Origin: Chiloscyllium plagiosum
Lineage: Eukaryota
NCBI RefSeq assembly: GCF_004010195.1
Contig: NC_057756.1
Span: 4,021,232-4,085,231, forward strand
Length of the DNA stretch: 64,000 nt
Reading direction: 5' to 3'
Every line of letters begins with the position of its first letter. The first letter of the stretch is position 1. Below are positions 4,359 to 64,000 of the stretch, one piece after another. The position numbers were made by a program, and so were the translations under genes. Below the pieces are notes generated by a model, which was not told the origin of the DNA, made no database searches, and saw nothing but the letters and a program-made list of their open reading frames with translations.

Positions 4359-4431
4359 AAAGTTAAAAATCACACAACACCAGGTTATAGTCCAACAGGT
4401 TTAATTGGAAGCACACTAGCTTTCGGAGCGC
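4359..4431 (-). repeat. Truncated copy of the short hammerhead-bearing repeat seen at 51141-51230
   Basis: AAGTTAAAAATCACACAACACCAGGTTATAGTCCAACAGGTTTAATTGGAAGCACACTAGCTTTCGGAGCG is the exact reverse complement of 51160-51230. It breaks off inside hammerhead stem II. Confidence 0.9.
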
Positions 4432-4559: not shown

Positions 4560-7275
4560 GGAAGAAAAGTGGGGCTATAAGGCAGATATTCAGGGAGCGA
4601 GGATGGAAGCTTGGACTTAGAACAATCAGTGTTGCTATCATTATTGCCCATGCCACATGCGAGTGAAGCGAGGAACAAAGAGAGAGTGGAGCTGCATGGA
4701 TGGTGTAGGAAGGAGGGTTTTAGATTTAAGGATAATTGAATCTCTTTCTGGGGAAAGTGGGACCTCTGCATAAAGGATGGTCTTCAGCTGAACCAGAGAA
4801 GTACCAAGATGTTCAGTTTGAAATTGCTAATTTCAGGGGTTGGCGTGGGTAGCGTTTAAACTAATGCAGCATGGGAATGTGAACTTGAAATATAGTTACA
4901 GGGCAGTGATGTTCGGGATAGGTTTGCAATGTCGCGAGAGGACACCAGCAATCAGGATGTTGGTTTGAAATATGTGTATGTCAATGCCAGGAACATCGGA
5001 AATAAGGTGGGTGAACTGGTCACATGGGTTGGTACCTCGGATTTCGATGTTGTGGCCATTTCAGAGACATGGCTAGCGGAGGGACAGGAATGGTTGTTAC
5101 ATATTCCGGGATGTAGATATTTTATCAAGAACACAGAAAATGTTAAAAGAGACCGGAGGTTTGGCATTGTTAATAAAGTGTAAAATTACAGGAGCTGTGA
5201 TAACGTTTGAGGACTTATCTATTGAGATAGTTTGGGCTGAGGGTAGAAAGAGGAAATAAAATGTCACCCTTTTTCGGAGTTTTCTATAGGCCTATGAAAT
5301 GTTCAAAGGAATGAGGGGGAAGAATAGCAAAGATGATTCTCGACAGGAGCGAGAGTAATAGTGTAGTTGTTATGGAGGACTTTAAATTCCTCAATATTGA
5401 CGGACTGGGAATACTACAGTTCAAGTAGTTAAATGGGTCAGTTTGTTTTTCAGTGTTTGCAGGAGGTTTTCTGACATTTTATGTAGAGTGGCCAACTAGT
5501 GGCAATGCCATATTGGATTTGGTGTGGGGTAGTGAACCCGGGCAGGTGTTAGATCTGGATATAGGTGAGTACTTTGGCGATAGTGTCCATAATTTGGTTA
5601 TGTATACAATAAGCAATGGACATTGATTGGTAAATACCGCAGGGAAAATGGTTTGCCTCGGGGATAGGCAATAATTACGCGATTAGGCAAGATTTTGGAT
5701 GCATAGGATGGGGAAGGAAACTGCAGGGGATGAACACATTTGAAATGTGGAGCTTGTTCAAGCAACAGCTAGGGAAAGTCCTTGATAAGTACATACCTAT
5801 TAGGCATGGTGGTTGTGTCGAGAGAGGGAGACATATTTTTCTAAAGATATTCAAGTCTTTCTAATAAGGAGGAAGAATGCTTATGTGAGGCTGAGGCGTG
5901 AAAATTCAGTTAGGAGGCTTGAAACTTCTAAATTATCCAAAAAGAATCTAAAGAGGCGGTTAAGAAGAGTCAGGAGGGGACATGAAAATTTGTTGGCGGA
6001 TAGGATCAAGGAAAAACCCAAGGCCTTTGAAGGGAATATCAGGAATAAAAGAATAACTCGATTAGGGCTAAGGAAAGATAGTAGTGGAAAGTTGTGTTTG
6101 GAACCTGACGACACGGAGAAGCACTTAATGAATACTTATCGTCAGTATTCACATTAGAAAAGGGCAATGTTCGTGAGAATACAGAGATACATGCTACAGG
6201 ATTAGATGGGATTGAGACAAAGTGTAGGGTTTTGCAATTTTGGAAAATGCCAAAATATTTAAGATCCCAGGGCTGAATGGGATTTATCCGTGGATTCTCT
6301 GGGAAGCCAGGGAGGAAATTCCAGAGCCGTTGGCTTTGATTCTTATATCATTCTTGTCGATGCGAGGAGTGCCACAAGACTGGAGGATTGCAAATGTTTC
6401 AGTTGTTTATGAAGGCGAGTCGGGACAACCCTGGCAATTACAAGCCAGTTAGCCTGACTTCTGTTATGGGTAAGGTGTTGAACAATGTTCTGTGATATAA
6501 GATTTATAATCATCTGGAAATGAATAAGTTATTGAGAGATAGTCTACAAGGGTTTGTGAACAGTAGATCATGCCTTAGTAATCTTATTGAGTTCTTCGAG
6601 AGGGTGGCAAAATAGGTGGCTGAAAGTAAGGTGGTTGATGTGTTGTATATGGACCTCAATATGACGATTGAGAAGGTTCCAAACGGTAGGCTATTGCACG
6701 AAATAAGAAGCTTTGGGATTGAGGGTGATTTAACGGTTGGGATCAAAAATAGGCTTGCTGAGAGAAGACAGATGGTGGTGGTTGATGGAAAATATTCATC
6801 CTGGAGATTTTCTACCAGTAGTGTGCCACAAGGATCTGCTTTGAGGGCACTGCTGTCCCTCATTTCTATAAATTATGTGGAGGTGGGCATGGAAGGATGA
6901 ATTAGTAAATTGGCAGATGAGACGAACGGAGGCAGAGTTGTGTTTAGTGCTGAAGGATGTTGTGCATTACAGAGAGACATATTTAAGATACAGAGCTGTG
7001 CTGAGACGTTGGAAATGGAGTTTATTGCGGAAAAGTGTGAGGCCATTCCTTTCGGAAGAAGTAACGGGAATGCTATTGGTAAAATTTTTTGCAGTGTAGA
7101 TTAACAGAGAGACCTCACTAACGTTAAGTGCATTTAAATGGACATGGGACATACATAAGGATAATAATGGAACGGTGTAGGTTAGATGGGCATCACGATA
7201 ATTTGGCAGGTCAGCACACCATCGAGGAGGAATAGCCTGTACTGCGCTGTAACATTTTATCTTCTATGTTCTTAA
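4560..7275 (+). mobile_element. CR1-clade LINE (HER1-like), decayed: ORF1 esterase end, ORF2 APE endonuclease and RT
   Basis: Motifs KYVYVNARNIGNKVGEL...DVVAISETWL (endonuclease), KIPGLNGIYPWILWEAREEI, VDVLYMDLNMTIEKVPNGRLL and SVPQGSAL (RT). Ends in a TTCTATGTTCTT-type tail; many stops and frameshifts. Confidence 0.9.
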
Positions 7276-22719: not shown

Positions 22720-25700
22720 CCGATGTGATCACATGCCTCTCGATGAAACCCACTGATACCACATGGACAGCAGACGACATGCAGACCAATACAATATGAA
22801 TCTGAACGTGATAACCAGTATAGACCACAAATTCAGCCACATCCGCAACCAACATCATCACCTACGCTACGCTTTCCACAACGTCCGCCACAACTGCCGC
22901 TGTTGCAAGCACGTCTGCCCCACTGATGCCATCACCTGTCACCACCGACACCCCGCAGATCCTTCAGTCACCACCTCTGTCACGCGGACGCCCGTGGTGA
23001 GCGTCTAGTCCATAAATGACGTCACCCCTTGTCCATCTACTATAACACACACTCCAGTTACAGTCTCCAGCTTCACTCCCAGCTCCAGCCATACACACAG
23101 TCCTAGCTCCCAGCCCAGCCGAGTTTATCCCATCGCCCCAGACTCACTTCACTGAGGAGGAACGATCAGTCATCAGCAAAGACCTGCCCTTAATCCCTCG
23201 CTGATCCCAGATTAATGCAATTAAATATGCATTGTGACATCGATTAATTCTTCCGTGCCTCTACCTCCAAGCTTATGTTTCCCATCAAGAATCCCGTCCA
23301 CATTCCAAGGATGTCTTCGCTCACCTCCAATACACTCCATCAACCTGGACACCCCATGCTGTACTGTCACCCGCCCTTGACCTTCTTACTTCCAACTGGC
23401 TGTGGGACATTAAGTGCCTCAACCTGTCCACCCCCTCGCCAACTCCATCTTCTCATCCTTACAACATGGAGCTCTCCACTTCCCCGCTCCAACCCTAAGC
23501 TCGTCATCAAACAAGCAGTGATAGTTTGGCGCATTGAACTCGACACTTTTGATGCCATGTGCCAACTTAAAGAAACTTCCTGCTACCACCACCTCGCCAA
23601 CTCCATCTTCTCATCCTTACAACATGGAGCTCTCCACTTCCCCGCTCCAACCCTAAGCTCGTCATCAAACAAGCAGTGATAGTTTGGCGCGTTGAACTCG
23701 ACACTTTTGATGCCATGTTCCAACTTAAAGAAACTTCCTGCTACCACCACCTCGGTCAGAACTTCACCTCCCATTACCAAACTATCATCCCTCAGACCGT
23801 ACACAACCTCATCACCTCAGTGGATCTCCCACCCACATGTTCCAACCACATTGCTCAGGAACCCTGGATCATCCAGTTCTACCTCCTACCCATGATCCAC
23901 AAGCCTGACTACACCGATCCACCCATTATCTCAGCCTGCTACTGCTCAACCGAATTTATCTCCACATACCAAGATCAAGTATAATCACCCAGATACACGA
24001 ATTCCCTACAGAATTTCGGGATACCACCTACACCCTCCCCCTCCGCCAAGACTTTTATTTCCCTGGCCCGTGATCGCTCATCTTCACCATGGACACGCAG
24101 TCCCTATACACAACTAGCCGCCATGACCCGGACCTCCAAGCCTTCCGTTTCTTCCTCTGCAGAGGTCACCACCATTAACCTTCCACGGAAACTATTTTGT
24201 TACGCTGAAGTGGTTTTCACACTCAATAATTTCTCCTTCATATCCTCCCACTTCCTTCAGACAAGATGAGTCGCTATTGCCATCCGCATGTGCCCCAGCT
24301 ATGCCTGTCTCTTTGTCAGCTATGAGGAACAGTCTATCTTCTGCAGGTACACTGGGAACACTCCCAACCTTTTCCTTCGTTACATTAATGACTGCATCGG
24401 CGCCACCTCGTGCTCACACGAGGGGGTTGAACAGTTAATCAAATTTACCATCACATTCCACCTGAACCTTAAATTCACCTGGAACATCTCAGACACCTCC
24501 CTCTCCCTCCTTAAACTGTCCATCTCCATCAACATTCACCGACTCAACACTGATATTTTCTGCAAACCTACCGACTCGCACAGCAACCTGGGTTACACCA
24601 ACTCCCACCCTACCATCTGTAAAAATGATATATCTTATTCCCAATTCCTATACATCTGACACTTGTGTTCCAAGGAGGACCAGTTCCACCAGAAAACACA
24701 TGCCTTGGTCTCTTTCTTTAAAGACTGTATTTTTTCCCTCCCACGTGTTTGATGATAGCCTCCAGCACATCTCATCCGTCCCGCACCTCTACCGTTGAAA
24801 ACCACCCCTCCAACCTCCACAGAGTCAGAACTCCCCGGTCCTCACATTGCAGCCCACCAACCTCCGTAGACATTGCATCATCCTTCGACATTTCTGCCAC
24901 CAACAAACGAACCCCACAACCAGAGATATATTTCCCTCCCCACTACATCCACTTTCCATAGAGACCGTTCCTTCCATGATTACCTCGTCAGGTCTACACA
25001 CTTCCCAACAAACCACCTAAACCTCACTGTTCCTTCCACTGCCACCGGAGGAAATGCAAAACTTGCGCCCACATCTCCCCCTCACCTCCATCCAAGGCAT
25101 TAAAGGAACCTTCCAAATCCATCAAAGTTTCACCTGCACTTTCACACATTTCATTTATTGTATCCATTATTCCCGATGCAGTCTTCTCTACATTGGGAAT
25201 AAAGGGCACCTAATCGCAGTATGCTTCAGAGAACATCTCTGTGACACCCGTTCCAACCAACCCCACTGCCCCGTGGCTGAACACTTCAACTTCCCCTCCC
25301 ATTCGACCGAGGACATGCAGGTCCTGAGCTTCCTCCATCGCCACTCCCTCTCCACCTGACGCCTTGAGGAAGAACAACTCATCTTCTGCCAGGGACCTTC
25401 CAAACCCATGGCATCAATGTGGATTTCACAAGTTTCCTCATGTTCCCTCCTGCCACGTTATCCCAGTTCTAAACTTACAGCTGAGCTCCACTCTCATGAT
25501 CTGTCGTACCTGGTTATCGACCTTCCCAGCTATTCTCTCCACCCTCCCCATCGACCTATCACCATTAACCGCACTTCCATCCATCGATTTCACTCACAGC
25601 TAGCTTGGCCTCAATCCCAGGCCCAGCCCCTCAAATTTATCTCTCTACCCCCGAGGTTCACTCGTTCCGTATGAAAGGCTTTTGACCGAAACGTCGATTT

Positions 25701-25790
25701 TCCTGCTCATCTGATGCAGCCTGACCTGCTGCACTTTTCCAGCACCACACTCTCGACTCAATTCTCCAGCATCTGCAGTCCTCACTTTCG
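22720..25790 (+). mobile_element. Penelope-like retroelement (Neptune-type), decayed: RT, Cys linker, GIY-YIG endonuclease, terminal hammerhead remnant
   Basis: FYLLPMIHKPD, MCPSYACLFV, FLRYINDCIG (RT), CHRRKCKTCAH linker, HFIYCIHYSRCSLLYIG...FREHL (GIY-YIG). ...GACCGAAACGTCGAT hammerhead remnant at ~25670-25700. Confidence 0.88.
23434..23754. repeat. Tandem duplication, 158-bp unit x2
   Basis: 23434-23591 is repeated at 23592-23749 with 2 substitutions seen; CCTCG occurs at all three junctions. Confidence 0.95.
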
Positions 25791-30075: not shown

Positions 30076-30157
30076 TGCTGGAACAGCACAGCAGGTCAGG
30101 CAGCATCCAGGGAACAGGAGATTCGACGTTTCGGGCACAGGCCCTTCTTCAGGAATG
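30076..30157 (-). mobile_element. Short non-autonomous Penelope-tail element
   Basis: Reverse complement matches the tail 25667-25745 of the Neptune-like element. Confidence 0.8.
30121..30156 (-). ncRNA. Minimal type-I hammerhead ribozyme, intact core
   Basis: Minus strand AUUC-CUGAAGA-A-GGGC(CUGU)GCCC-GAAAC-GUC-GAAU: stem I AUUC/GAAU, core CUGANGA/GAAA, palindromic ACGU stem III, GUC cleavage triplet. Confidence 0.8.
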
Positions 30158-30945
30158 AGCAGAGTAGTTTCCGAACAGAATGAATGCGATATTGATATCT
30201 ATCAGTCAGGATAACAGTTATCTCTCATCTCTGATTCAACAAAATCTGGATGCTCATGTCCCAAGTGCTATGGTCAATCTTTGGTTCACAGTGAATAAAA
30301 GTAATGAATTGTATTGGAACAGTCCTGTCAATCTTTAACTGCAAACTCTCCACTTCTACTTGGCATAATGTTTCTATTTCTGTAGACTGCAAAAATTTGA
30401 TAGTCTTTATCAATTGTTCCCTTAAGTCAAAAGTTGGTTTCTGTTGTAAGATAGTTCATAGTTTTTATTTCCTTCGGGTTTTGCTCCTCTATTCCCCCCA
30501 ACCCCCGTCCGCCACACACACACACACAGTTTTTCCTAAATGATGCACCTCGGTGTGTTAAGGCGTTCTTTCTGTCAACAAGAGTGAAATCGACTCTCCT
30601 CTATTACTACTCCATCATAAAACTACTAAAAGCCGCAATGTTAACATTATCTATAGATTACAGTGAGAGCCAATAAGGTGTTAATTCATGCGTTGCAAAA
30701 TAAAAAAATAAAAACACTTAGCACATGCGAGTTATGAAGTGCACGTCTTCATTCATTTACTTCATAAACATTGTATTGTTCTGAAGAGGTCTGTCTTTTT
30801 TTCAGTTTGTTTATTCTACTGCGTTCATTCAACAACAAAAGAAGACACTAGGATATCCATTAATGCCTGTAAATGACAAATGGCTTATCAAAGGAACTTA
30901 ATGTGACACGTCATGTCTTATCTCCGTTTGTTTTCTGCTTTTCAG

Positions 30946-33325: not shown

Positions 33326-36210
33326 GAACACAGAACATAGAACGTTACAGAGCAGTACAGGCATTTTGGACCATGATTTTGTGCCGACCTGGAAAATTAA
33401 TCTGATGCCCAACTAACCGAAACCATTCGATTAGTATCCATATGTATGCTCAATGCCCATTTAAATGCAGTTTACATCAGTGAGTCTCCGACTGTTACAG
33501 GCAGGATTTTCCATGCCCCTAATATCTGAGTGAAGAAACTATCTCTGATATCTAAACTAACTCTATCATCCCTCAATTTAAAGCTATATCTCCTCGCGTT
33601 TGCCTTCACTATCAGAGGGAAAAGGCCTTTGCTGTCCACGCTATCTCACGCTCTGATTATCTTATGTATCAATTAATTCACTTCTCAAACTTCTTCTCGC
33701 CAATGAAAACAACCTCAATTCCCTCACCCTTTCTTTGCAAAACTTTCCTTCCATACCAGGCAACATCCTAGTAAATCTCATTTAACAGTTTCCAAAGCTT
33801 CCACATTCTTGTTATAATGTGGTGACTAGATTTGCATGCTTTACTGCAGGTACGGACTTACCAGTGTATTTAAAGCGAATGCATGACCTCATGGCTCCGA
33901 AACTTAATCCCCATTCTAATAAACACCAACACACCTTATGCCTTCTGAACAAGCCTATCAATGTGGAATGCAATTTTCACGGATTAACGCACATGGACAC
34001 CGGGATCTCTCTGTTCATCTACACTGCCAAGAATTTTACAAATAGACCAGTACTCTGCAATCTTGTTCCTTCTTCCGAAGTGAACAACCTCTCACTCTCC
34101 CGCAGGGATTTGCCATTCCTTTGCCCTGCTCTGCAACTGGCTTATGTCCCTCTGAAACTCACAACATCCTTTAGCAATATCTACAACTCTGCATTCCTTA
34201 GTGTCATCTGCAAATTTACTAGCCCATTCTTTTACGCCCACCTCCAGATCATATACAAAGATGACAAACAGCAGTGGCCCCAAACATATCCTTGTGTCAC
34301 ACAAATGGTACCTGAGATTCAGGATGAACATTTCCTATCAACCACCACCCTCTGTCTTCTTTCAACTAGCGAATTTCTGATCCAAACTGTTGAATCATCT
34401 TCAATCCCGAAACTCCGTATTTTGTGTCATAACTTATAGTGTGGAACCTGATCAAACGCCTTACTGAAGTCCATATACACATCAACCGCCTTACCTTCAT
34501 CCACATGTTGCCAACTCGAAAAACTCACTAAGGTTAGTGAGCCAAGACCTGCACTTCACAAAAACGGGGTGACTATCCCTCAACAAATTATTTATTTCCA
34601 GATGATTATAAATCCTACCTCCTAGAAGCTTTTCCAACACCTTACCCACAACCAAAGTAAGGTTCACTGGCCTATAATTGCCAGGGTTGTTCCAAATCCC
34701 CCATCTTAAAGAAGGGAACAAAATGTTCTACCTCCAGCTTTCTGGCACTACCTCTGTCCAGAATGGTAACATACACATCGAAACCAAAGGTTCTGCAAGT
34801 TCCTCCGAGGCTTCGCTGAGAATCTGACCCAGGATTCTTATCGATTTTCAGATCTTCTAAAATTGTTAAAACCTCCTCTTTGTAAATCTCAATCCCATCG
34901 AACGTTGTCGCCTTTATCTTCATATTCACACGAATATTGCCACTTTCAAATGTGAATACTGATGAAAAGTACACAATAGGCGCTTCCCAATTTCCTCAGG
35001 ATTCACACACAACTTTCCACTACTATCTTTGATTGGCGGTCATCTTACTTCAGTCATGCTTTTATTGCCGCTATGCCTACAGAAGGCCTTAGAGTTTTCT
35101 TTGCTCCTATCCGCCAGCAACTCCTCATTCTTCCTCCTCGTTCATCTATTTTCTGTCTTTAGATATTTCTGGCTAACTTATGACTCTCAAGCCTTCTAAC
35201 TGAGCCATCACCCCTGACTCTTATACAAACCTTCACTTTCCTCTTAAAAGAGCTTCAACCTCTTTCATAAACCATGGCTCCCTGTCTCGACAACTATCTC
35301 CTGCTTGATTAGTATATAGTTATCAAGGAGCCGCAGTAACTGTTCGTTGAATAAGCTCCACACTTCAAGAATGTCCATTCCCTGCAGTTTCCTGCCGCAT
35401 TCTATGCATCCTAAAGCTTGCCTAATTGCGTAATAATTGTCTTTCCCCCAGTTATACCTCTTTCTCTGAGGCATATACCTATCTTTGCCCACTGGTATTG
35501 TAAACATAACCGAATTAATGTCACCATAGCCAAAGTGCTCACCGATATCCAAATGTAACACCTGCCCGGTTTCATTATCCAGTATCAAATCTAATTTGGC
35601 CACCCCACTTGTTGGCCTGTCAACATATTGTGTCATAAAACCCTTCTGCACACATTCAACAAAAGTCGAAGGGTCAAATCTACTTGAACTATCCTATTCC
35701 CAATTAGCAAATATTGGGGAAGTTAAAGTCCCCCATAACAATTACCCTGTTACTCTCGCTTCTGTTGAGATCATCTTTGCTATCATTTCGCCTGCATCCC
35801 TCGAATAATTCGGAGGCCTATAGAAAATTCCTAACAGGGTGATGTCTCCTTTTCTGTCTCTATCCTCAGCCCAAACTACCTCAGTGGATAGGTCCTCAAA
35901 CGTTATCTCTTTAATCATCTTTACTGGTCTTGCTGAAATATGGGAATCTCGGAATCTGGAACAACCATTCACGTCAATCCTATAGCGAGATCTCTCAGAT
36001 GACCACAAAATCTAAATCCCAGATAATAACACATGCTGCAAGTTCATCCACCTTATTGCAGATTCAAAATCACATTAAAATACACACTTTTCAAACCAAC
36101 ATCCTGATTGCCGCTGCCCTCGCCCGATCTCGTAAACCAATCCCTGACCTCACAACCCTCAACCTTCCATACACTGGAACGATAATTGAGGTTCCCAACA
36201 CCCTGCAGCA
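33326..36210 (-). mobile_element. CR1/HER1-like LINE ORF2, near full length, decayed; same subfamily as 4560-7275
   Basis: Reverse-strand motifs GLKSVYFN, LLGIFYRPPN, TQYVDRPTSGVAKLDLIL, NPGNYRPVNLTLVVGKVLE, LGPLLFVIFVYDL...SKFADDTK. Tail (AGAACAT-like repeats) at 33326-33343. Confidence 0.92.
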
Positions 36211-45478: not shown

Positions 45479-46467
45479 GTAAGTAAAAAACAATGTTAAT
45501 TTTTTTCCACTCAAATTATCATGAAATAATTGTCATCAGAGATATGCACAACATAATAATAGTTGGGCCATCTCGAAATATCTATCTTTAATTTTGTTAA
45601 GGGTAAAATTAAAATTCAAAACTGCAAACAAAAAAGAAAATGAGAAAGTGATTCCTTCGTATAAAATATATTGGAAACAAAGAGAAATGAGTAAATATCA
45701 AACAAAACAATTGAGAAAAAAAAACAAGCAAAGGATAATATGGTTCCAATAGAATGGTGCAAGAGTAAATTTTAGGGGGAAAAAACAAAGGGAATGGCAG
45801 ATGCAGGTTGCCTTTAGACCCTAAATATGTTGACTGTGAGCATGCTTTCCATTTAATTTCAAACCAACGCCAAGATTAGAATGTTAAGCCTTTATTGATG
45901 TAACTTAATTGGCACAGCATTTGCTGTATCTGCATCGTGCACATTCAGATTAATCCTTCACACTTATTCCCAGACAAATTTCAATGTATTTTAATGACGG
46001 TTTCAGTTCATTTTGATGTTTCTGTAGAAGGCCATAATACTATATATAAATTTTTGAGAACGCCTTCACTGGCTTCTCTCATTTATGTACCATCAGGTTC
46101 AGAAACATGTGGATTTGTTTCTTCATGCTGAGTTCGAAAAAGTACGACATTCTCCTCTTATTTTCCATCACTATCAGAATACTGATTGAGCATATTCACG
46201 TAACATATTCTGTGATGTTTTCTTCCATCTGGTCCTTTGTTTTCTGAAATTCACCTCTCTTAATTGCGTTTCATTTTACTAAGGACGACTAACCTTGCCT
46301 TGAAGTGTTCATGTCCTGATGGTATTAGTAACAGTTTACCTTCACTGGGGTAATGACAACATTTTCATTTCTTCTATTTTCTACGTTATCACATACTTTG
46401 CTCAATGAAAAATGTATTTAATCAATTGAGTATAAGGAAATGCCATGGCGTTTTTGCGACGAGTTCA

Positions 46468-46558
46468 ATCTTATGAAGGGCTCCTGCCCAAAACGTCGAT
46501 TCTCCTGCTCCTCAGATGCTGCATGACCTGCTGTGCTTTTCCAGCACCATATACTCTC
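46468..46558 (+). mobile_element. Short Penelope-tail element with mutated hammerhead
   Basis: CTTATGAAGGGCTCCTGCCCAAAACGTCGATTCTCCTGCTCCTCAGATGCTGCATGACCTGCTGTGCTTTTCCAGCACC; both core segments are mutated. Confidence 0.8.
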
Positions 46559-51140: not shown

Positions 51141-51230
51141 TCACCTGATGAAGGAGCGTCGCTCCGAAAGCTAGTGTGCTTCCAATTAAACCTGTTGGAC
51201 TATAACCTGGTGTTGTGTGATTTTTAACTT
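51141..51230 (+). mobile_element. 90-bp hammerhead-containing retroposed element with 12-bp target site duplication
   Basis: AGGACAGAACAA at both 51129-51140 and 51231-51242; the element is homologous to 4359-4431 and 36470-36532. Confidence 0.9.
51142..51176 (+). ncRNA. Minimal type-I hammerhead ribozyme, intact core
   Basis: CAC-CUGAUGA-A-GGAGC(GUC)GCUCC-GAAAG-CUA-GUG: stem I CAC/GUG, palindromic AGCU stem III, CUA triplet. Confidence 0.75.
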
Positions 51231-57150: not shown

Positions 57151-57370
57151 GAAAGTGAGGACTCCAGCTGCTGGCGGTCAGAGTCAAAACTGTCGTGCTG
57201 GAAAACGACAGCCGATGAGACAGCTTCCGAGGAGCAGGAAAGACGACGATTTGAGCTACTTCTTCCTCACGAAGAGCTCATTCCTGAAGAAGAGCTAATG
57301 CTCGAAACGTCGACTCTCCTGCTCCTCAGTTTCAGCGTGACCGGTTTTGTTTTTCGAGCACCACACTTCT
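57151..57370. mobile_element. Head-to-head pair of short Penelope-tail elements (imperfect palindrome)
   Basis: 57151-57272 is the reverse complement of the 25670-25789 tail; 57279-57370 is a forward copy. Confidence 0.8.
57280..57315 (+). ncRNA. Minimal type-I hammerhead ribozyme, core intact, one stem I mismatch
   Basis: AUUC-CUGAAGA-A-GAGC(UAAU)GCUC-GAAAC-GUC-GACU. Confidence 0.7.
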
Positions 57371-57479: not shown

Positions 57480-60096
57480 ATGAGTAGAAATAGCCTTAAA
57501 TAGAGTGATGTAGTGATCCTGTTCGATGTGGGAGGTAAGGGAGAATTTCTATGTGCCTGATTATTACCTCTGCAGGAAGGGTGTTATGTTGTGAATTTTG
57601 TCAGAATACATGAATAGGTTGTAGTGCGATTGAGAGGATATTAGAGACAGAAGCTGGACAGTGTGATGGCTGGCAGCTTATGGAAGGCAGAAACACTGCA
57701 GATAAATTCTAGTAGTTATGTTGCTCATAGGAAATGGGGAAAGGTGGTCATACAGTGCAGGACTTTCCTGTGGCTATCCCCATCTCAAACAAGTATGATA
57801 TTTTGCAAAATATCAGGTTGATGGACTCTCAGGGGAACATTGCACTGACAGCTAGGTTTCTGGAATCAAGAGTGCTGTAATGTCGTGACGGGTATGTCTG
57901 GTTCCATGTGAATGATTGCGATGGAGAATCTCGAGTCAGGCGCACAGAACGGCATTTCTGTGTCTGCAGTATGACATCTGAATTGTGTGTTGCCACAGTC
58001 AAGGTTGCCTAACAGATGGCGTGCAACATTCTCAAAGGGGAGTTGACAAATAGGAGTTCGTTGTACACGTTCATGCCAATGAACTGTGAAGAGAATGGGA
58101 TGAGAGTCTGAACATAGTGAGCAACAAAGATAGTTAAAAAGAAAATTCACAAGGACAGGAACGCCGAGATTATTCTCTTTGCACTGTGCTGCAGACAGTA
58201 GCAAATGGAGTATAGATCAGATGAATGTGGAGCTGAGAAGGTGTAGTGGGGACAGGTATTGACACTTTTACAATTTTGGATTTTATTCATGTGCAGACGT
58301 GACCACTATAATGGAGACGGATAGCAGTTGAGTTGGAAGGAGATTGTTACCTTGGCAGAGAGATCTGCTGGTGCTATTTTGGGCCATAACACGATTAGAA
58401 AGACGATTGGGTGCCAAAGAGAAATTGAAAAAAGAGATAAGCTTGATGATGCTGCAATTGACAAGAGGAGCAAGTCAATTAATCAAGAAAAGCAACAACA
58501 AGGCAGAGCATTGCAATGTATTTATTTCATTGCCAGAGACCTGAAAAGTAAGGCAGATGAACTCAGGGCATGATTGAGAACATGAAGTTATGATGCAATA
58601 GCTGGTACAGCATTGTATCTCAGAGACGATAAGGTCTGGATATAGGGTGGGATATTTATCGGAGTAAACACAGTAAATTTAATTGTGTCGGATTAAAAAC
58701 AAAGAATGAACTTATCACATTCAGCTCCCTCCTCAGCAGGAAATTGAGAAGCAAATTTGTAATGAGATCTCAGATATCTCTCTACATGGTCGGGTAATAA
58801 CGGCAGGGCATTTTAAACTTTCAAACACAGAACAGGACTGCCATTGCTTTAAAGGATTGGTTGGGGAGGAATTTGTCAAGTGTGTAGAATATGTTTTTTT
58901 TAATTCAATATGTGAATGAAAATACCAGAGAAGCAGTAAAACTTGACCTGCTCTTGGAACATAAAGCAGGGTAAGTGAATGAGCTGGCAATGAGGGACAC
59001 TTGGGCCTCGTGATTAAAGTTCAAATATTTTTAGAATGATTGTGGAAAGAATGTACCTGAACTACAATTTAAAAGTTTAAATTGGACTGAGACTAATTTT
59101 GACGGTATTAGGCAAGAACTTTAAAAATTTGATCTTGAGAGGCTATCTGCAGTTAATGAAGCATTTGGAGAACTGGAGGCCTTCCGAAATTAGGCAGTGA
59201 AAGGACAAATACTGTATGTTCTCGATAGTGTGAAGAGGAAAGGCGGTATATGTAACAAATGCTCAATAACAAGAGAAATTAAACCTCTGGTCAAGAAAAA
59301 CACTGAGGCATATGGCAGATATAGATGGCGTGCATCGAGTGAATTCTATAAAAAGTGTAATGGCAATAAGAGTACACGAAAGAGGGAAAACCAAGATTGG
59401 AAGAAAGTGGATCGAGGGTAGTTTTGGCAAATAGGATTTAGTAGAATCCCTAGAGACTCGACAAAAAAAGGATAAAAGTGTAATTAGGACAAATATAGAA
59501 TCCGTTAAAGACCTCTGAGTGTGGATTTGCAGGAGATACTAATGGACTAAACGGGTATTTAGCGTCAGTATTTACTGTGAAGGATATGGAAGCCAGAGAA
59601 CGTGGAGAAATAAATCGTGATATCTTGAAAAATGTCCATATTGCAGAGGAAGTGGTGCTAGACGTCCTTACACGCATAAAGGTGGAAAAAAACCCGAACC
59701 TGATCAATTATATTTCAGACCTTTGAAAGCTAGTGGGGCCATTGCTGGGCCTTTTTTGCAACGTTTAGTTCTACGATAGACTCGGGTGTGGTTCTGGAAG
59801 ACGAGAGAATTGCTAGTGAGATGTCATTTTCAAAGAAAATTGATTAAAAAATAGGTAGGTTTTCCAAAGACCGGGAGCATGGCATCATGTGGTGGGTATG
59901 TCGTTGGAGGAGATGCTGAAACCATGTATTTGGAAAGACAAAAACGGATTAGGAATTGTCAAGAAAGCTTGTTGTGTGCGTAATTGAGCCGAACTAACTT
60001 GATTGACGTTTTGAAGAAATGACAAACAACATTAATCAAGCCAGTGTCATTGTCGACATGGAGAACTTAATTAAGGAGTTTACCAAAGTTCTATAC
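57480..60096 (+). mobile_element. CR1 LINE, 5' part (ORF1 relic, endonuclease, RT up to the KAFDKV motif), decayed
   Basis: SCSMWEVRENFYVPDYYLCRK (ORF1 zinc-finger relic), IPISNKYDIL and LQCIYFIARDLKSKADELRA (endonuclease). Ends at ATGGAGAACTTAATTAAGGAGTTTACCAAAGTTCTATAC. Confidence 0.85.
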
Positions 60097-60169
60097 TGGT
60101 TTGGGAAGGTTTGTAGCTCAGGTTGAGGTGTAGGGTGTAGGCTTGCTCGATGAGCTGCAGGTTTGATAT

Positions 60170-60209
60170 CCAGACGTTTCGTTACCTGGCTAGGTAACAT
60201 CATCAATGG
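60170..60209 (-). ncRNA. Minimal hammerhead ribozyme, U3 variant
   Basis: CCA-UUGAUGA-U-GUUACCU(AGCC)AGGUAAC-GAAAC-GUC-UGG. Confidence 0.7.
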
Positions 60210-60928
60210 TGACCTCCAAGTGAAGCGAAGCTGTTGTCTCCTGCTTTCTATTTATATGTTTGTTCTGGATGGGGTTCCAGGTGTTTGTGGTGATGTCATT
60301 TCCTGTTCGTTTTCTGAGGGGTTGATAGATGTTATCGAGATCTATGTGTTTGTTTATGGCGTTGTGGTTGGAGTGCCAGGCCTCTAGGAATTCTCTGGCA
60401 TGTCTTTGCTTAGCCTGTCCCAAGATAGATGTGTTGTCCCAGTCGAAATGGTGGTTTCTTCCTCCATGTGTAGGGATACGAGGGAGAGAGGGTCGTGTCT
60501 TTTTGTGGCTAGCTGGTGTTCGTCTATCCTGATGGCTAACTTTCTTCCTGTTTGTCCTACGTAGTGTTTCTGGCAGTCCTTACATGGAATTTTGTAGATG
60601 ACGTTGGTTTTGTCCATGGGATGTACTGGGTCATTTAAGTTTGTTAGTTTTTGTTTGAGCGTGTTGGTGGGTTTGTGTGCTACTAGGATTCTGAGGAGTC
60701 TTACTCGTCTGGCTGTTATTTCTGAAACTTCTTTGATGTATGGTAAGGTGGTTAGGGTTTCTGGCTGTGTTTGGTTTGTTTGTCCTGGTTTGTTCTTGAG
60801 GAATCTGCGGACTGTATTTTTTGAGTACCCGTTCTTCTTGAATACGTTGTATAGGTGGTTCTGCTCTGTTTTCCGAAGCTCTTCTGAGCTGCAGATGTGG
60901 CTCATTGGAATAGTGTTCTGATATAGCT

Positions 60929-61861
60929 TCATCTGTGTGTGTTGGGATGGTTGTGGGTGTAGTTAAGTATTTGGTCAGTGTTTGTTGGTTTTCTGTGTAT
61001 GCAGGTTTGTAGTTCTCTGTTGTCCGTTCTTTCGATTGTAACGTCCCAGAATGCGAGTTTGTTGTTGGTTTCTTCCTCCTTGGTAAACGTTATGCCTGTG
61101 AGGGTGTTGTTGATGATGTTAAATTTCTCTCCTGTCTTGTTTCGTTTTGTGATGACAGAGGTGTCATCTACATAGCGGACCCAGATTTTTGGTTTGATGG
61201 TTGGTAGGGCTGTTTGTTGTAGTCTTTGCATTACTGCTTCTGCTATGAATCCTGATAGTGGAGATCCCATGGGTGTGCCGTTGGTTTGTTTGTAGATAAT
61301 GATGTTGAAGGTGAAGTGGGTGGTGAGGCACAGGTCCACTAGCTTCATGATGTTTTCGTTGGTAATGTTATTGATGGTGGTTGGGGTGTGTGTAATGGTC
61401 TCTTCTAAAAGTATGGTAAGTGTTTCCTTTGCCAGGTCAATATTGATGGAGGTGAACAGTGCTGTTACGTCGAATGAGATCATTGTTTCGTCTTCCTCGA
61501 TTTTGGTGTTTTTAATGATTTTTAGGAATAACTGGGTGGAGTGGATGGAGTGCTTTGACTCTTCTACTAGGTATTTCAATCTTGCGTGCAGTTCTTTGAC
61601 CAGTTTGTAAGTTGGTGTTCCGGGTTGTGAGACTATCGGTCTGTTGGGGTCTCCTGGTTTATGGATTTTTGGTAGTCCATAGAATCGTGGGGTGTTGGTC
61701 ATGTCTGATTTCATTTTTTGGAATTCCGTCTTGTTTAATTGTCTGGAATTGTGTAATTTTCTTAGGAGATACGTAATTTTAATTCCCAGTTGTGGGTTAG
61801 GCACTAGCGCCACCTGTTGGTAGGTGTTGGTGTCTGTGGGTAGTGCATTGGATTTCTCCAT
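60929..61861 (-). pseudogene. Penelope-like reverse transcriptase fragment, 310 aa open, 5'-truncated
   Basis: RT motifs as above; separated from the downstream endonuclease part by a stop/frameshift near 60930. Confidence 0.9.
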
Positions 61862-62078
61862 GCAATCCCTTCTGTTCAGGATGACTGTGAGCCAATCTTT
61901 GCCTTTAGGTAATGTAATGATGTTTTTGTCTTATGTGAGGTTATCTAGGGCTTTCTTTTCTTGTATGTTCAGTTTGTTTCCTTTCCTCTTTCGGCTCACA
62001 GTAGGTGCAACTGTCTGTCTGATCGTTTTGTGGTTCTGCTCGTTTCTTCCGTGAGTTTGATGTCCTTCAATGTGGTTT

Positions 62079-63556
62079 CTACCCGGAGCACCAACTTACA
62101 GACTGGCCGGAGAACTACACGCAAGACTGAAATACCTAGTAGAAGAGTCACAGCACTCCATCCATTCCACCCAGTATTTCCTAAAAATCATCAAAAACAC
62201 CAAAATAGCAGAAGACGAAATAATGATCTCATTCGACGTAACAGCACCTCTCAACTCCATCAACATCGACCTGGCAAAGGAAACACCTACCACACTTTGA
62301 GAAGAGACCATCACACACTCCAAACACCATTGATCACATTACCAACGAAAACATCACGAAGCTACTGGACCTGTGCCTCAGCAGCCGCTTCACCTTCAAT
62401 AACATAATCTACAAACAAACCAACGGCACACCCATGGGATCTACGCTATCAGGATTCATGGCAGAAGCGATAAAGCAAAGACTAGAACAAACAGCCCTAC
62501 CAATCATCAAACCAAAACTCTGGGTCCGCTACGTAGATGACACCTTTGTCATCACAAAACGAAACAAAACAGGAGAGAAATTTAAAATGGTCAACAACAC
62601 TCTCACAGGCATAACGTTTACCAAGGAGGAAGAAACCGAGAACAAACTCGCATTCTGGGACGTCACAGTCGAAAGAACGGACAATAGAGAACTACAAACC
62701 TGCACATAAAGAAAACCAACAAACACTGAACAAATACTTAACTACACCACAAAAACGAAGCTATATCAGAACACTATTCCAATGAGCCACATCACACTGC
62801 AGCATAGAGGAACTACGAAAAACAGCGGAGAACCACCTATACAATGTATTCAAGAAGAACGGATACTCAAAAAATACAGTCCGCAGATTCCTCAAGAACA
62901 AACCAGGACAAGCAGACCAAACACAGCCAGAAACCCTAACCACCTTAGCATACATCAAAGAAGTTTCACAAATGACAGCCAGACTACTAAGACCCCTCAG
63001 AATCCTAGTAGCATACAAACCCACCAACACTCTCAAACAAAAACTAACAAACTTAAATGACCCAGTACATCCCATGGACAAAACCAACATCATCTACAAA
63101 ATTCCATGCAAGGACTGCCAGAAAAACTACAAGGACAAACAAGAAGAAAGTTAGCCACCAGGATACGCGAACACCAGCTCGCCACAAAAAGACACGACCC
63201 TCTCTCCCTCGTAGCCCGACACACGGGGGAAGAAAACACGATTTCGACTGGGACAACACATCTATCCTGGGACAGGCTAAGCAAAGACATGCCAGAGAAT
63301 TCCTAGAGCCCTGGCATTCCAACCACAACGCCACAAACAACACATAATGTAGATACCATCTATCAACCCCTCAGAAAACGAACAGGAAATGACATCACCA
63401 CAAACCCCAGGAAACCCATCCAGGAGAAACATATAAATAGAAAGCAGGAGACAACAGCGTTGCTTCACTTGGAGGTCGCCATTGATGATGTTCTCTGGCC
63501 AGGGAATGAAACGTCTGGATATCAAACCTACAGCCCAGCGAGGACACCTACACCCT
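62079..63556 (+). mobile_element. Penelope-like retroelement, right arm of inverted pair (shorter 5' end, more disrupted)
   Basis: PGAPTYRLAGELHARLKYL, SFDVTA, MGSTLSG, LWVRYVDDTF and NIIYKIPCKDC; reverse-complement homolog of ~60130-61626. Confidence 0.95.
63479..63518 (+). ncRNA. Minimal hammerhead ribozyme, U3 variant
   Basis: CCA-UUGAUGA-U-GUUCUCU(GGCC)AGGGAAU-GAAAC-GUC-UGG. Confidence 0.65.
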
Positions 63557-64000
63557 AAAGTTGTATACGTATGATTGGTTAACTAGGATATATTAGATGG
63601 ATTCCAGGAAGAGGAACCATTAATATATAAAATTTGTTTGAATTTGGGAGACAGAGGGTGGAGGTAGACTGTTTTTTTAATTGATTGGAGACCCTTGGCA
63701 ACGCTGTGGTACAAGGATTGGTGATGGGTTCACAACTTTTTAGCATTCATACCAATGATCTGGACGTAAATATATGATGATTGTTTAGTAGGCTTTCAGA
63801 CAATACCAAAGTTTTCTGTGTCGAAGGCAGTGTAAAATGTCATCACAGAGTCCAATTTGACCGAGATCAAATGGGACGATGGGCTAAGAAGTGACAGATG
63901 GTGTTTAATTTAGGTAGATGCGAGGTATCGCATGTTGGCATTGCAAATCAGGGCAGGAATGAATGGTAGTGTCCTGGTGTCTATTGGCAAACAATGGCAC
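63557..64000 (+). mobile_element. CR1 LINE RT, continuation after the Penelope insertion (runs off window)
   Basis: AVVQGLVMGSQLFSIHTNDLD (from GVPQGSVLGPxLFxIxINDLD), FSDNTK and WAKK*QMVFNLGRCEVSHVG. Confidence 0.85.

Follow-up and report, generated by a model that had tools for sequence, protein, structure and literature searches.

A head-to-head pair of 5'-truncated Penelope copies within an older CR1 repeat of the shark Chiloscyllium plagiosum: one source or two?

A typical Penelope insertion combines an inverted 5'-truncated copy, a tail on one side and a target-site duplication (TSD) (PMC3846280, PMC8557442), and the head-to-head orientation is described as the most frequent arrangement in endonuclease-bearing Penelope-like elements (PMC3846280, PMC8557442, PMC2377424), while the way in which such inverted units are built has been called unresolved (PMC8557442, PMC3846280). 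Near the end of the 64,000-nucleotide stretch of C. plagiosum DNA that we analysed (NC_057756.1, 4,021,232 to 4,085,231; hereafter the window), two such copies face each other, and the initial annotation suggested that two different template RNAs may have been used. The locus raises the question of whether a single event produced the unit, and whether its arms stem from one source or two; it is a suitable test case, its arms being long enough to offer the sites needed for the single-source question. Our analysis favours, with a probability of roughly 0.6, the reading that both arms derive in a single event from one source copy, which was probably already defective. The features are as follows.

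59889–60096, plus strand: host, upstream part of a decayed CR1-type LINE reverse transcriptase (RT), ending on KVPH-equivalent codons; aligns to a CR1 copy elsewhere in the window
60085–60096, plus strand: left TSD copy, AAAGTTCTATAC, matching 63557–63568 at 11 of 12 positions
60097–62081, minus strand: 5'-truncated Penelope copy of about 1.98 kb (minus arm and spacer), interrupted by stops and frameshifts; from domain and protein matches
60097–60130, minus strand: AC-rich 34-nt 'tail', present in the minus arm alone; the arm alignment stops at 60131/63557
60173–60206, minus strand: minimal hammerhead-like motif of the minus arm from a pattern scan; stem II folds
60504–60602, minus strand: minus-arm region with the GIY-YIG endonuclease motif (Pfam PF01541, residues 98–130 of 60459–60893)
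61626–62080, minus strand: spacer, the section of the minus copy without counterpart in the plus arm, 455 nt; covered by family reads
62079–62081, no strand: head-to-head junction with a probable 3-nt microhomology
62079–63556, plus strand: 5'-truncated Penelope copy (plus arm), 3' end without tail; from the RVT_1 match and arm alignment
63482–63515, plus strand: hammerhead-like motif of the plus arm from the pattern scan; folds worse than shuffles
63557–63568, plus strand: right TSD copy, AAAGTTGTATAC, matching 60085–60096 at 11 of 12 positions
63569–63800, plus strand: host CR1 RT, downstream part, with an RQRV motif at 63649; aligns to the same CR1 copy

The structure, with inverted arms, a spacer and a TSD inside a collinear CR1 RT, is confirmed. 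Self-BLAST aligns 60131–61625 with 63557–62081 at 89.8% identity over 1499 columns (127 substitutions across the 1473 aligned sites, 71 of them transitions and 56 transversions; the other 26 columns contain gaps), and this, together with the 455-nt spacer, bears out the annotated head-to-head pair with arms of about 1.5 kb around a spacer of about 450 bp. The annotated 12-bp TSD with one mismatch was recovered as the sole pair of 12-mers matching at 11 or more positions among the 69 × 69 pairs scanned around both ends, with a chance expectation of 5e-6 at fixed ends and of 0.026 across the scanned pairs. The A at 63557 is compatible with both the plus-arm element and the TSD. Both host flanks align to the CR1 copy at 34652–34207 (minus strand) above 100 shuffles, the upstream one, against 34652–34439, with a score of 77 (shuffle maximum 63.5) and the downstream one with 93 (shuffle maximum 64.5). 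The TSD lies on the (Q/K)VPH codons of that copy, and the RQRV motif is spaced 80 nt from it at the insertion host versus 81 nt in the other copy, in line with the annotated rejoining of the host CR1 RT at the KAFDKVPH position when the insert is removed. CR1-like read pile-ups reach out to 59095.

Because the host is collinear, the inner junction holds no second TSD and the arms share rare alleles (see below), the two copies are supported as a single insertion, in agreement with the annotated single unit with one TSD. A separate TSD around one arm was considered and rejected, as the letters at the inner junction are accounted for by the two copies; a 5-nt resemblance to the TSD at this position is taken as chance. 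The inner and right junctions are known from the assembled sequence and the left junction also from independent contigs, one from organism A with 1 difference in 505 positions and one from organism B with 18 differences in 254. Among the contig matches listed, none spans 62078/62079. One organism C contig tracks the minus copy as far as 62081, and the plus copy translates in frame as L-P-G starting at 62079; on the basis of this one contig, the two copies probably overlap by the 3 nt 62079–62081, as a microhomology at the junction. The 34-nt extension at 60097–60130, a feature unnamed in the initial annotation, has no counterpart in the plus arm, and it begins beyond a frequent end of family copies: 62 organism C contigs stop matching at 60131, with unrelated flanks.

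Both arms consist of decayed RT and GIY-YIG Penelope sequence with best matches in carpet sharks. In the minus copy, the Pfam profile RVT_1 matches within 60932–61930 (E 1e-10) and GIY-YIG within 60459–60893 (E 0.0015, below the curated cut-off), and the plus arm yields RVT_1 within 62323–62706 (E 7e-6). The order of an RT followed by a C-terminal GIY-YIG domain, with shark proteins collinear across the two domains, is that of endonuclease-bearing Penelope-like elements, as are the 34-nt tail on the minus arm alone beyond the family end at 60131, and the layout of an inverted 5'-truncated copy adjoining the 5' end with a short TSD around the unit. The top protein matches of the minus copy are carpet-shark proteins (56–86%), and the plus-arm search gave 8 matches among 12 candidates, all at 69% identity or less; the ranked matches comprise sharks, schistosomes, tapeworms and a conifer, and by its affinities the family presumably belongs to the Penelope/Poseidon clade. 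The open reading frame of the minus copy is interrupted by stops and frameshifts. No long direct repeat (partial tandem, direct pseudo-LTR) was found, both copies being truncated before the start of the open reading frame, and the window holds no further pieces of the inserted family; a degenerate 23-nt family motif had 0 matches in metagenome contigs. The hammerhead-like motifs, scanned with a core consensus pattern, carry an altered first core base (T) in both arms, and Rfam gave 0 matches at E ≤ 1 in 58000–64000.

The insertion is older than the species split between organisms A and B, both of which carry the left junction; for organism C, the contigs listed include none from the flanks. 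Flank divergence between A and B amounts to 55/864 (6.4%), as measured on three organism B contigs of which one crosses the left junction, and the arms differ at 127/1473 sites (8.6%). As the insertion predates a split with 6.4% flank divergence, its age explains most of the arm divergence.

Several observations connect the arms with a common source. Among the 40 rare-allele rows listed of 443, six lie in the arm overlap, five of them informative. At three of the five the plus arm agrees with the family, and at two, 61047 and 61085, it carries the minus arm's rare base, from which 406 of 411 and 453 of 458 family reads differ. Sharing two of five such alleles, which some 99% of family reads lack, has a chance of about 0.001. 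At 60895–60904, both arms deviate in the same three ways, one of them a stop codon, from the loose-end consensus of the family (12 organism B contigs, agreement 0.97; compared by eye). Compared with nine shark proteins, 12 deviating amino-acid states are common to the arms, 14 private to the minus arm and 23 to the plus arm; for 7 of the 12, which include L>W, C>Y and two G>R changes, the closest homolog P0022 disagrees as well, and neither these 7 changes nor a stop common to the arms occurs in the shark homologs. The arm differences look close to neutral, with 38, 35 and 42 at the three codon positions. The arm dN/dS of 0.63–0.68 lies under the mean of the neutral null (0.86–0.87) without significance (p 0.09–0.16), and we counted it against the one-source reading. 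A shared frameshift near 60454 was downgraded to weak evidence because it lies in an indel-prone run: P0022 likewise leaves the frame there, and the listed insertion occurs in just 307 of 1635 reads. In view of the private lesions common to both arms, of their near-neutral differences and of an age that covers most of the divergence, the idea that two different template RNAs underlie the arm differences is unsupported by our data. A synonymous excess without shared private alleles, as for arms of two lineages, is not what we see: the rare alleles are shared and the codon positions neutrally spread.

Beyond this we infer how priming proceeded, how many RNA molecules took part and that a copy moved in trans; the whole would amount to an old single retrotransposition by an endonuclease-bearing Penelope-like element. 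Its GIY-YIG nuclease would have cut the two strands of the CR1 fossil 12 nt apart, as the TSD suggests; the top-strand 3' end may have primed a cDNA of about 1.98 kb at a 'tailed' start site, and the second arm of about 1.48 kb would have been copied from the same source, most likely primed at the bottom-strand nick, at a tail-less start site 34 nt further in. The 5'-truncated ends of both cDNAs could then have joined over the 3-nt microhomology, and the arms, identical or nearly so at birth, would have decayed independently to 8.6%. The source appears to have carried the stop and the radical amino-acid changes already, so that a dead copy mobilised in trans is its probable identity. We propose tentatively, at somewhat less than even odds, that all this happened in a single reaction: a Penelope enzyme, perhaps as a dimer, would have primed both nicks on RNA of one dead source copy, at the tailed start site on one strand and at the tail-less one on the other.

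A biochemical parallel is the Poseidon element of Anolis carolinensis, which cleaves and extends both strands in vitro, and for which two RT start sites delimit the tail and a dimer is predicted (PMC11167929). The two start sites correspond to the tailed and tail-less ends of the shark unit, and Poseidon inserts have a hammerhead near the 3' end, where the shark unit carries its candidate hammerhead-like motif, whereas the Poseidon cut motif ATT is not evident at the shark insertion site; the sections consulted of the Poseidon study contain no joined head-to-head products (PMC11167929). Priming from both nicked strands, as initially suggested, is therefore plausible, but it is not a unique solution, because cDNA fold-back gives the same product. 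L1 twin priming is similar in that one TSD surrounds the inverted unit; there, both nicks prime one RNA and the cDNA ends join by microcomplementarity, as may be the case here. However, the second L1 priming is internal and by chance complementarity, whereas both shark arms begin at the element's own 3' start sites; the shark unit lacks poly(A), and its arm overlap is 1.5 kb versus an L1 median of 22 bp (bioRxiv 10.1101/2024.08.27.596794). A product of the L1 type, with internal second priming and scant overlap, was rejected on these grounds. The annotated contrast to L1 holds for the 1.5-kb overlap but is one of degree, as 283 of 1,703 L1 inversions have overlapping arms (10.1101/2024.08.27.596794).

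An alternative, which we regard as unlikely, is that the second arm arose by fold-back, in which the cDNA 3' end annealed to its own strand near 61625 via the same 3 nt and was extended back over 1.5 kb. Self-priming is favoured in PMC3846280, and the tail has been attributed to endonuclease resolution of an intermediate (PMC8557442); in the spirit of the former, our version ends with cutting or joining at the tail boundary. Fold-back predicts overlapping arms that start out identical and have lesions in common, a spacer-sized loop and the same 3-nt microhomology, but the back-copy must halt exactly at the common family end 60131, an endpoint that follows directly from a second RT start site, and the inner junction has no palindrome, unlike the rotifer cases.

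It is quite improbable that an intact template was inserted in one event and that lesions arose at the locus and spread by gene conversion between the near-identical arms. Long inverted repeats can undergo conversion, which would account for the shared stop and radical changes without trans-mobilisation, and the shared lesions suit early conversion as well as a shared template. However, shared and private changes are interleaved, and no conversion tracts were found between the arms, as long identity tracts and clustered differences are lacking: longest run (57 versus 57 expected), adjacency and run-length statistic all lie within shuffles.

Even less credit is due to two different RNAs (copies or subfamilies), one per nick, with some arm divergence present at birth. 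This reading can draw on the dN/dS slightly below the null, on several subfamilies among the reads (loose ends), on 14 differences in the final 99 columns and on the hammerhead stem, in which the annotated compensated pair is upheld by the arm alignment (A-T in the minus and C-G in the plus arm, next to two G-U changes in the latter). Of 18 stem sites, 5 differ between the arms, and one pair is fully compensated (about p 0.02 each, chosen post hoc); these differences count against one source. In a weaker form of the reading, another RNA would have supplied just the final ~90 nt at the plus arm's 3' end. The common rare alleles at 61047 and 61085, the stop and the amino-acid lesions speak against two RNAs, as do the neutral codon-position spread and the age that accounts for most of the divergence.

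By count, 10 of 15 joints connect opposite strands, and some inverted junctions are multi-copy, because two strand-switch joints of the family reach contig depths of 646 and 824 versus about 30 in single-copy flank. These depths, and an inner junction known solely from the assembled sequence, are what speaks for the most improbable readings, an older head-to-head master copied whole, two successive insertions or an assembly artefact, against which stand that no high-depth contig crosses the inner junction among the matches listed, that the one TSD sits at the outer ends alone with no copy at the inner junction and the shared rare alleles exclude unrelated insertions, and that the 8.6% arm difference is unlike a chimeric read fold-back and the left junction recurs in independent contigs.

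The locus as such is an ordinary fossil with an insertion layout already known for Penelope-like elements. As in Penelope/Poseidon insertions, the inverted 5'-truncated copy lies directly at the 5' end (PMC3846280, PMC8557442, PMC2377424), the tail is one-sided (30–40 bp there, 34 nt here) and one TSD encloses the whole unit (8–10 bp in rotifers, 12 bp here). The shark arms are longer, with 1.5 kb versus the ~200-bp pLTR of typical units; Penelope of Drosophila virilis has large inverted terminal repeats of variable size (PMC3846280, PMC8557442, PMC2377424). Unlike typical units, the shark unit lacks a full open reading frame, a partial tandem, which is optional in truncated insertions (PMC8557442, PMC2377424), and a junction palindrome. 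Non-autonomous derivatives of Penelope-like elements have been proposed (retrozyme preprint 10.64898/2026.07.22.740005), and in the open-access literature covered we found no account of the insertion structure of this shark family or of alleles shared by Penelope arms.

In summary, the one-source outcome removes the most surprising claim, the two RNAs, and hints that dead copies moved in trans. If the two-strand reaction is correct, the tail on one side and the extended inverted arms would record in vivo what has been observed in vitro, an activity on two strands from two start sites, and counts of arms that share private lesions across the inverted units of the genome could separate the two-strand, fold-back and two-template models.

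The Penelope pair inserted in a host CR1 reverse transcriptase gene comprises the following parts; organisms A, B and C below denote the sources of the read and contig sets compared with the window.

60085-63568: whole unit, two 5'-truncated Penelope copies, head to head
60085-60096 and 63557-63568: target-site duplication (TSD)
60097-62081, minus strand: minus copy (minus arm plus spacer)
60097-60130: tail, a 34-nt extension of the minus arm
61626-62080: spacer, the part of the minus copy without a plus-arm counterpart
62079-63556, plus strand: plus copy (plus arm)

The initial annotation described inverted arms around a spacer, one 12-bp TSD with one mismatch and a host CR1 RT that is rejoined at KVPH once the unit is removed, and all of this was confirmed. 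In a self-BLAST, the arms (60131-61625 and 62081-63557) are 89.8% identical across 1499 columns, with 127 substitutions in 1473 aligned sites, and lie 455 nt apart. The two TSD copies agree at 11/12 positions and are the sole such 12-mer pair in a 69x69 scan around the ends, a match expected by chance at 5e-6 for fixed ends and at 0.026 across the scanned pairs. Each host flank was aligned on its own with a further CR1 copy from the window: the left one stops at the (Q/K)VPH codons, and the right one continues to the RQRV motif at a spacing of 80 nt, vs 81 nt in that copy. The host CR1 is thus collinear across the insertion, and the 12-mer a genuine duplication. That the pair was inserted as one unit is likewise upheld. 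Two more old CR1-type copies, at 4900-7271 and 33326-36159 on opposite strands and 71% identical, served as references for the host. At 60069, 16 nt from the left TSD, the contigs of organisms A and B have C; the A of the window is either a variant private to it or an error of assembly.

On the minus copy, Pfam identifies RVT_1 (E 1e-10) with GIY-YIG (E 0.0015, under the curated cut-off) downstream of it, and both arms contain stops and frameshifts. Among the best 120 of 367 matches, Stegostoma and Chiloscyllium supply the nearest named proteins (56-86%), followed by schistosomes and tapeworms. Raw-read depth in one run falls from ~3300 near the family 3' end to ~90 at 61835-61939, vs 2-4 in unique flank, and the family is therefore abundant with a strong 5'-truncation gradient. 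Close to the 3' end of each arm lies what we take, from a core pattern, to be a hammerhead-like motif; Rfam gave 0 matches for this region (58000-64000, E<=1). A second short repeat family with such motifs, at 57284 (+) and 30152 (-), occupies 57188-57368, with related pieces at 25661-25789, 30076-30160 and 46457-46549; its 57.2-kb copy, an imperfect palindrome, probably represents a miniature head-to-head stub from a different Penelope family. Elsewhere in the window, a 71-nt identical stretch recurs inverted 47 kb apart (4360-4430 and 51160-51230), probably as young copies of the end of a different short retroelement, and a 158-nt tandem duplication of 98% identity (23428-23754) directly precedes an RT-like region (23724-24746).

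The minus-arm extension past the plus-arm end, which the initial annotation did not name, is the Penelope 'tail': position 60131 is a frequent family end, at which 62 organism C contigs stop, with unrelated sequence beyond. The layout resembles the typical Penelope unit of PMC3846280, bounded by an inverted pLTR, with a 31-bp tail on one side (34 nt here), a 9-bp TSD (12 bp here) and head-to-head as the most frequent arrangement, and the D. virilis Penelope of PMC2377424 carries large terminal inverted repeats whose size varies. The contrast that the initial annotation drew with L1 twin priming is a matter of degree, since L1 arms overlap too, in 283/1,703 inversions with a median of 22 bp according to bioRxiv 10.1101/2024.08.27.596794; here the arms are ~1.5 kb.

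Both arms share departures from their family. Of 443 variant rows, 40 were listed and six lie inside the arm overlap, one of them in a plus-arm gap; at the remaining five, the plus arm carries the family base three times and the minus arm's rare base twice, and these two rare bases are absent from 406/411 and 453/458 reads (chance ~0.001). At 60895-60904, compared by eye, the arms agree at three differences from the family loose-end consensus, one of which is a stop. Against nine shark proteins, 12 amino-acid states are shared, 14 minus-private and 23 plus-private, besides 5 sites where both arms differ, 7 shared states that a homolog has too and 133 variable columns left out of the count; at seven of the 12, among them L>W, C>Y and two G>R, the closest homolog disagrees as well. 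A shared frameshift near 60454 carries little weight, as the run there is prone to indels. Because rare bases, a stop and amino-acid states are common to both, the arms appear to derive from one already decayed sequence, whose distance from the family was about half of what each arm has drifted later.

The 3' end of each TSD copy leads directly into antisense element sequence from the family 3' end, and both edges would fit target-primed reverse transcription on both strands. PMC11167929 reports nicking and extension of both strands by a Poseidon protein, with two start sites that delimit the tail, and predicts a dimer. We favor, with a probability of roughly 0.6, a model in which both nicked target strands would prime reverse transcription on RNA from one defective source copy (a single molecule, or two transcribed at one locus), and the two cDNA ends would join at a microhomology. 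Because one organism C contig, the single contig behind the overlap, matches the minus copy through 62081 while the plus copy reads in frame from 62079, a microhomology of 3 nt, likewise absent from the initial annotation, is probable at the join; none of the pieces listed for 59000-62140 spans this inner junction. The product would look the same had one cDNA folded back on itself, a course that is possible, if unlikely. Gene conversion at the locus is improbable: arm differences show no clustering into tracts, which argues against late conversion, though not against early homogenisation.

Two different template RNAs, as the initial annotation suggested, are highly improbable given these shared states. 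Arms from different active lineages should show mostly synonymous differences, yet the differences fall 38/35/42 over codon positions, and dN/dS (0.63-0.68; neutral null 0.86-0.87, p 0.09-0.16) is close to neutral and leans slightly, though not significantly, in that direction. The compensated hammerhead stem pair does exist, among 5/18 differing stem sites (~p 0.02, post hoc), and counts against a single source sequence. Age also speaks against them. In a comparison of one stretch, 59000-62140 (the right junction lies beyond it), with 4 of 24 listed runs, the left junction was bridged by a single-copy organism A contig (59623-60127, 1 difference) and an organism B contig (59874-60127, 18 differences), both of which reach 31 nt into the element; the insertion is therefore older than the A/B split. 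Organism B flank divergence is 6.4% (55/864 sites, CI 4.8-8.2; three contigs, only one crossing the junction), vs 8.6% between the arms (CI 7.2-10.2; Fisher p 0.055). For arms that have decayed since before the split, the A/B distance sets an approximate minimum of divergence, and most of what separates them thus needs no extra cause. A pre-formed, sequential or artefactual origin is barely credible. The unit is a real single insertion of known layout, and the surprising part of the initial annotation, the two templates, is not supported.

The contig set also bears on the family as a whole. Strand-switch junctions at 60175/60800 and 60727/61653, the latter also carried by 2 raw reads, have contig depths of 824 and 646 vs ~30 in single-copy flank, and some pre-formed inverted junctions therefore seem to be present in ~20 or more copies. 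Ten of the 15 joints listed (15 of 152) are strand switches, in unspecified orientation, inside the family at other loci, and two more enter the plus arm, 60419 to 62091 (A) and 61672 to 62089 (B), which we interpret as head-to-head junctions belonging to other copies. The organism B joint, from spacer to plus-arm start, probably belongs to another locus, although it could reflect a spacer deletion in the orthologue. Together, these joints indicate that inverted junctions are common in this Penelope family.
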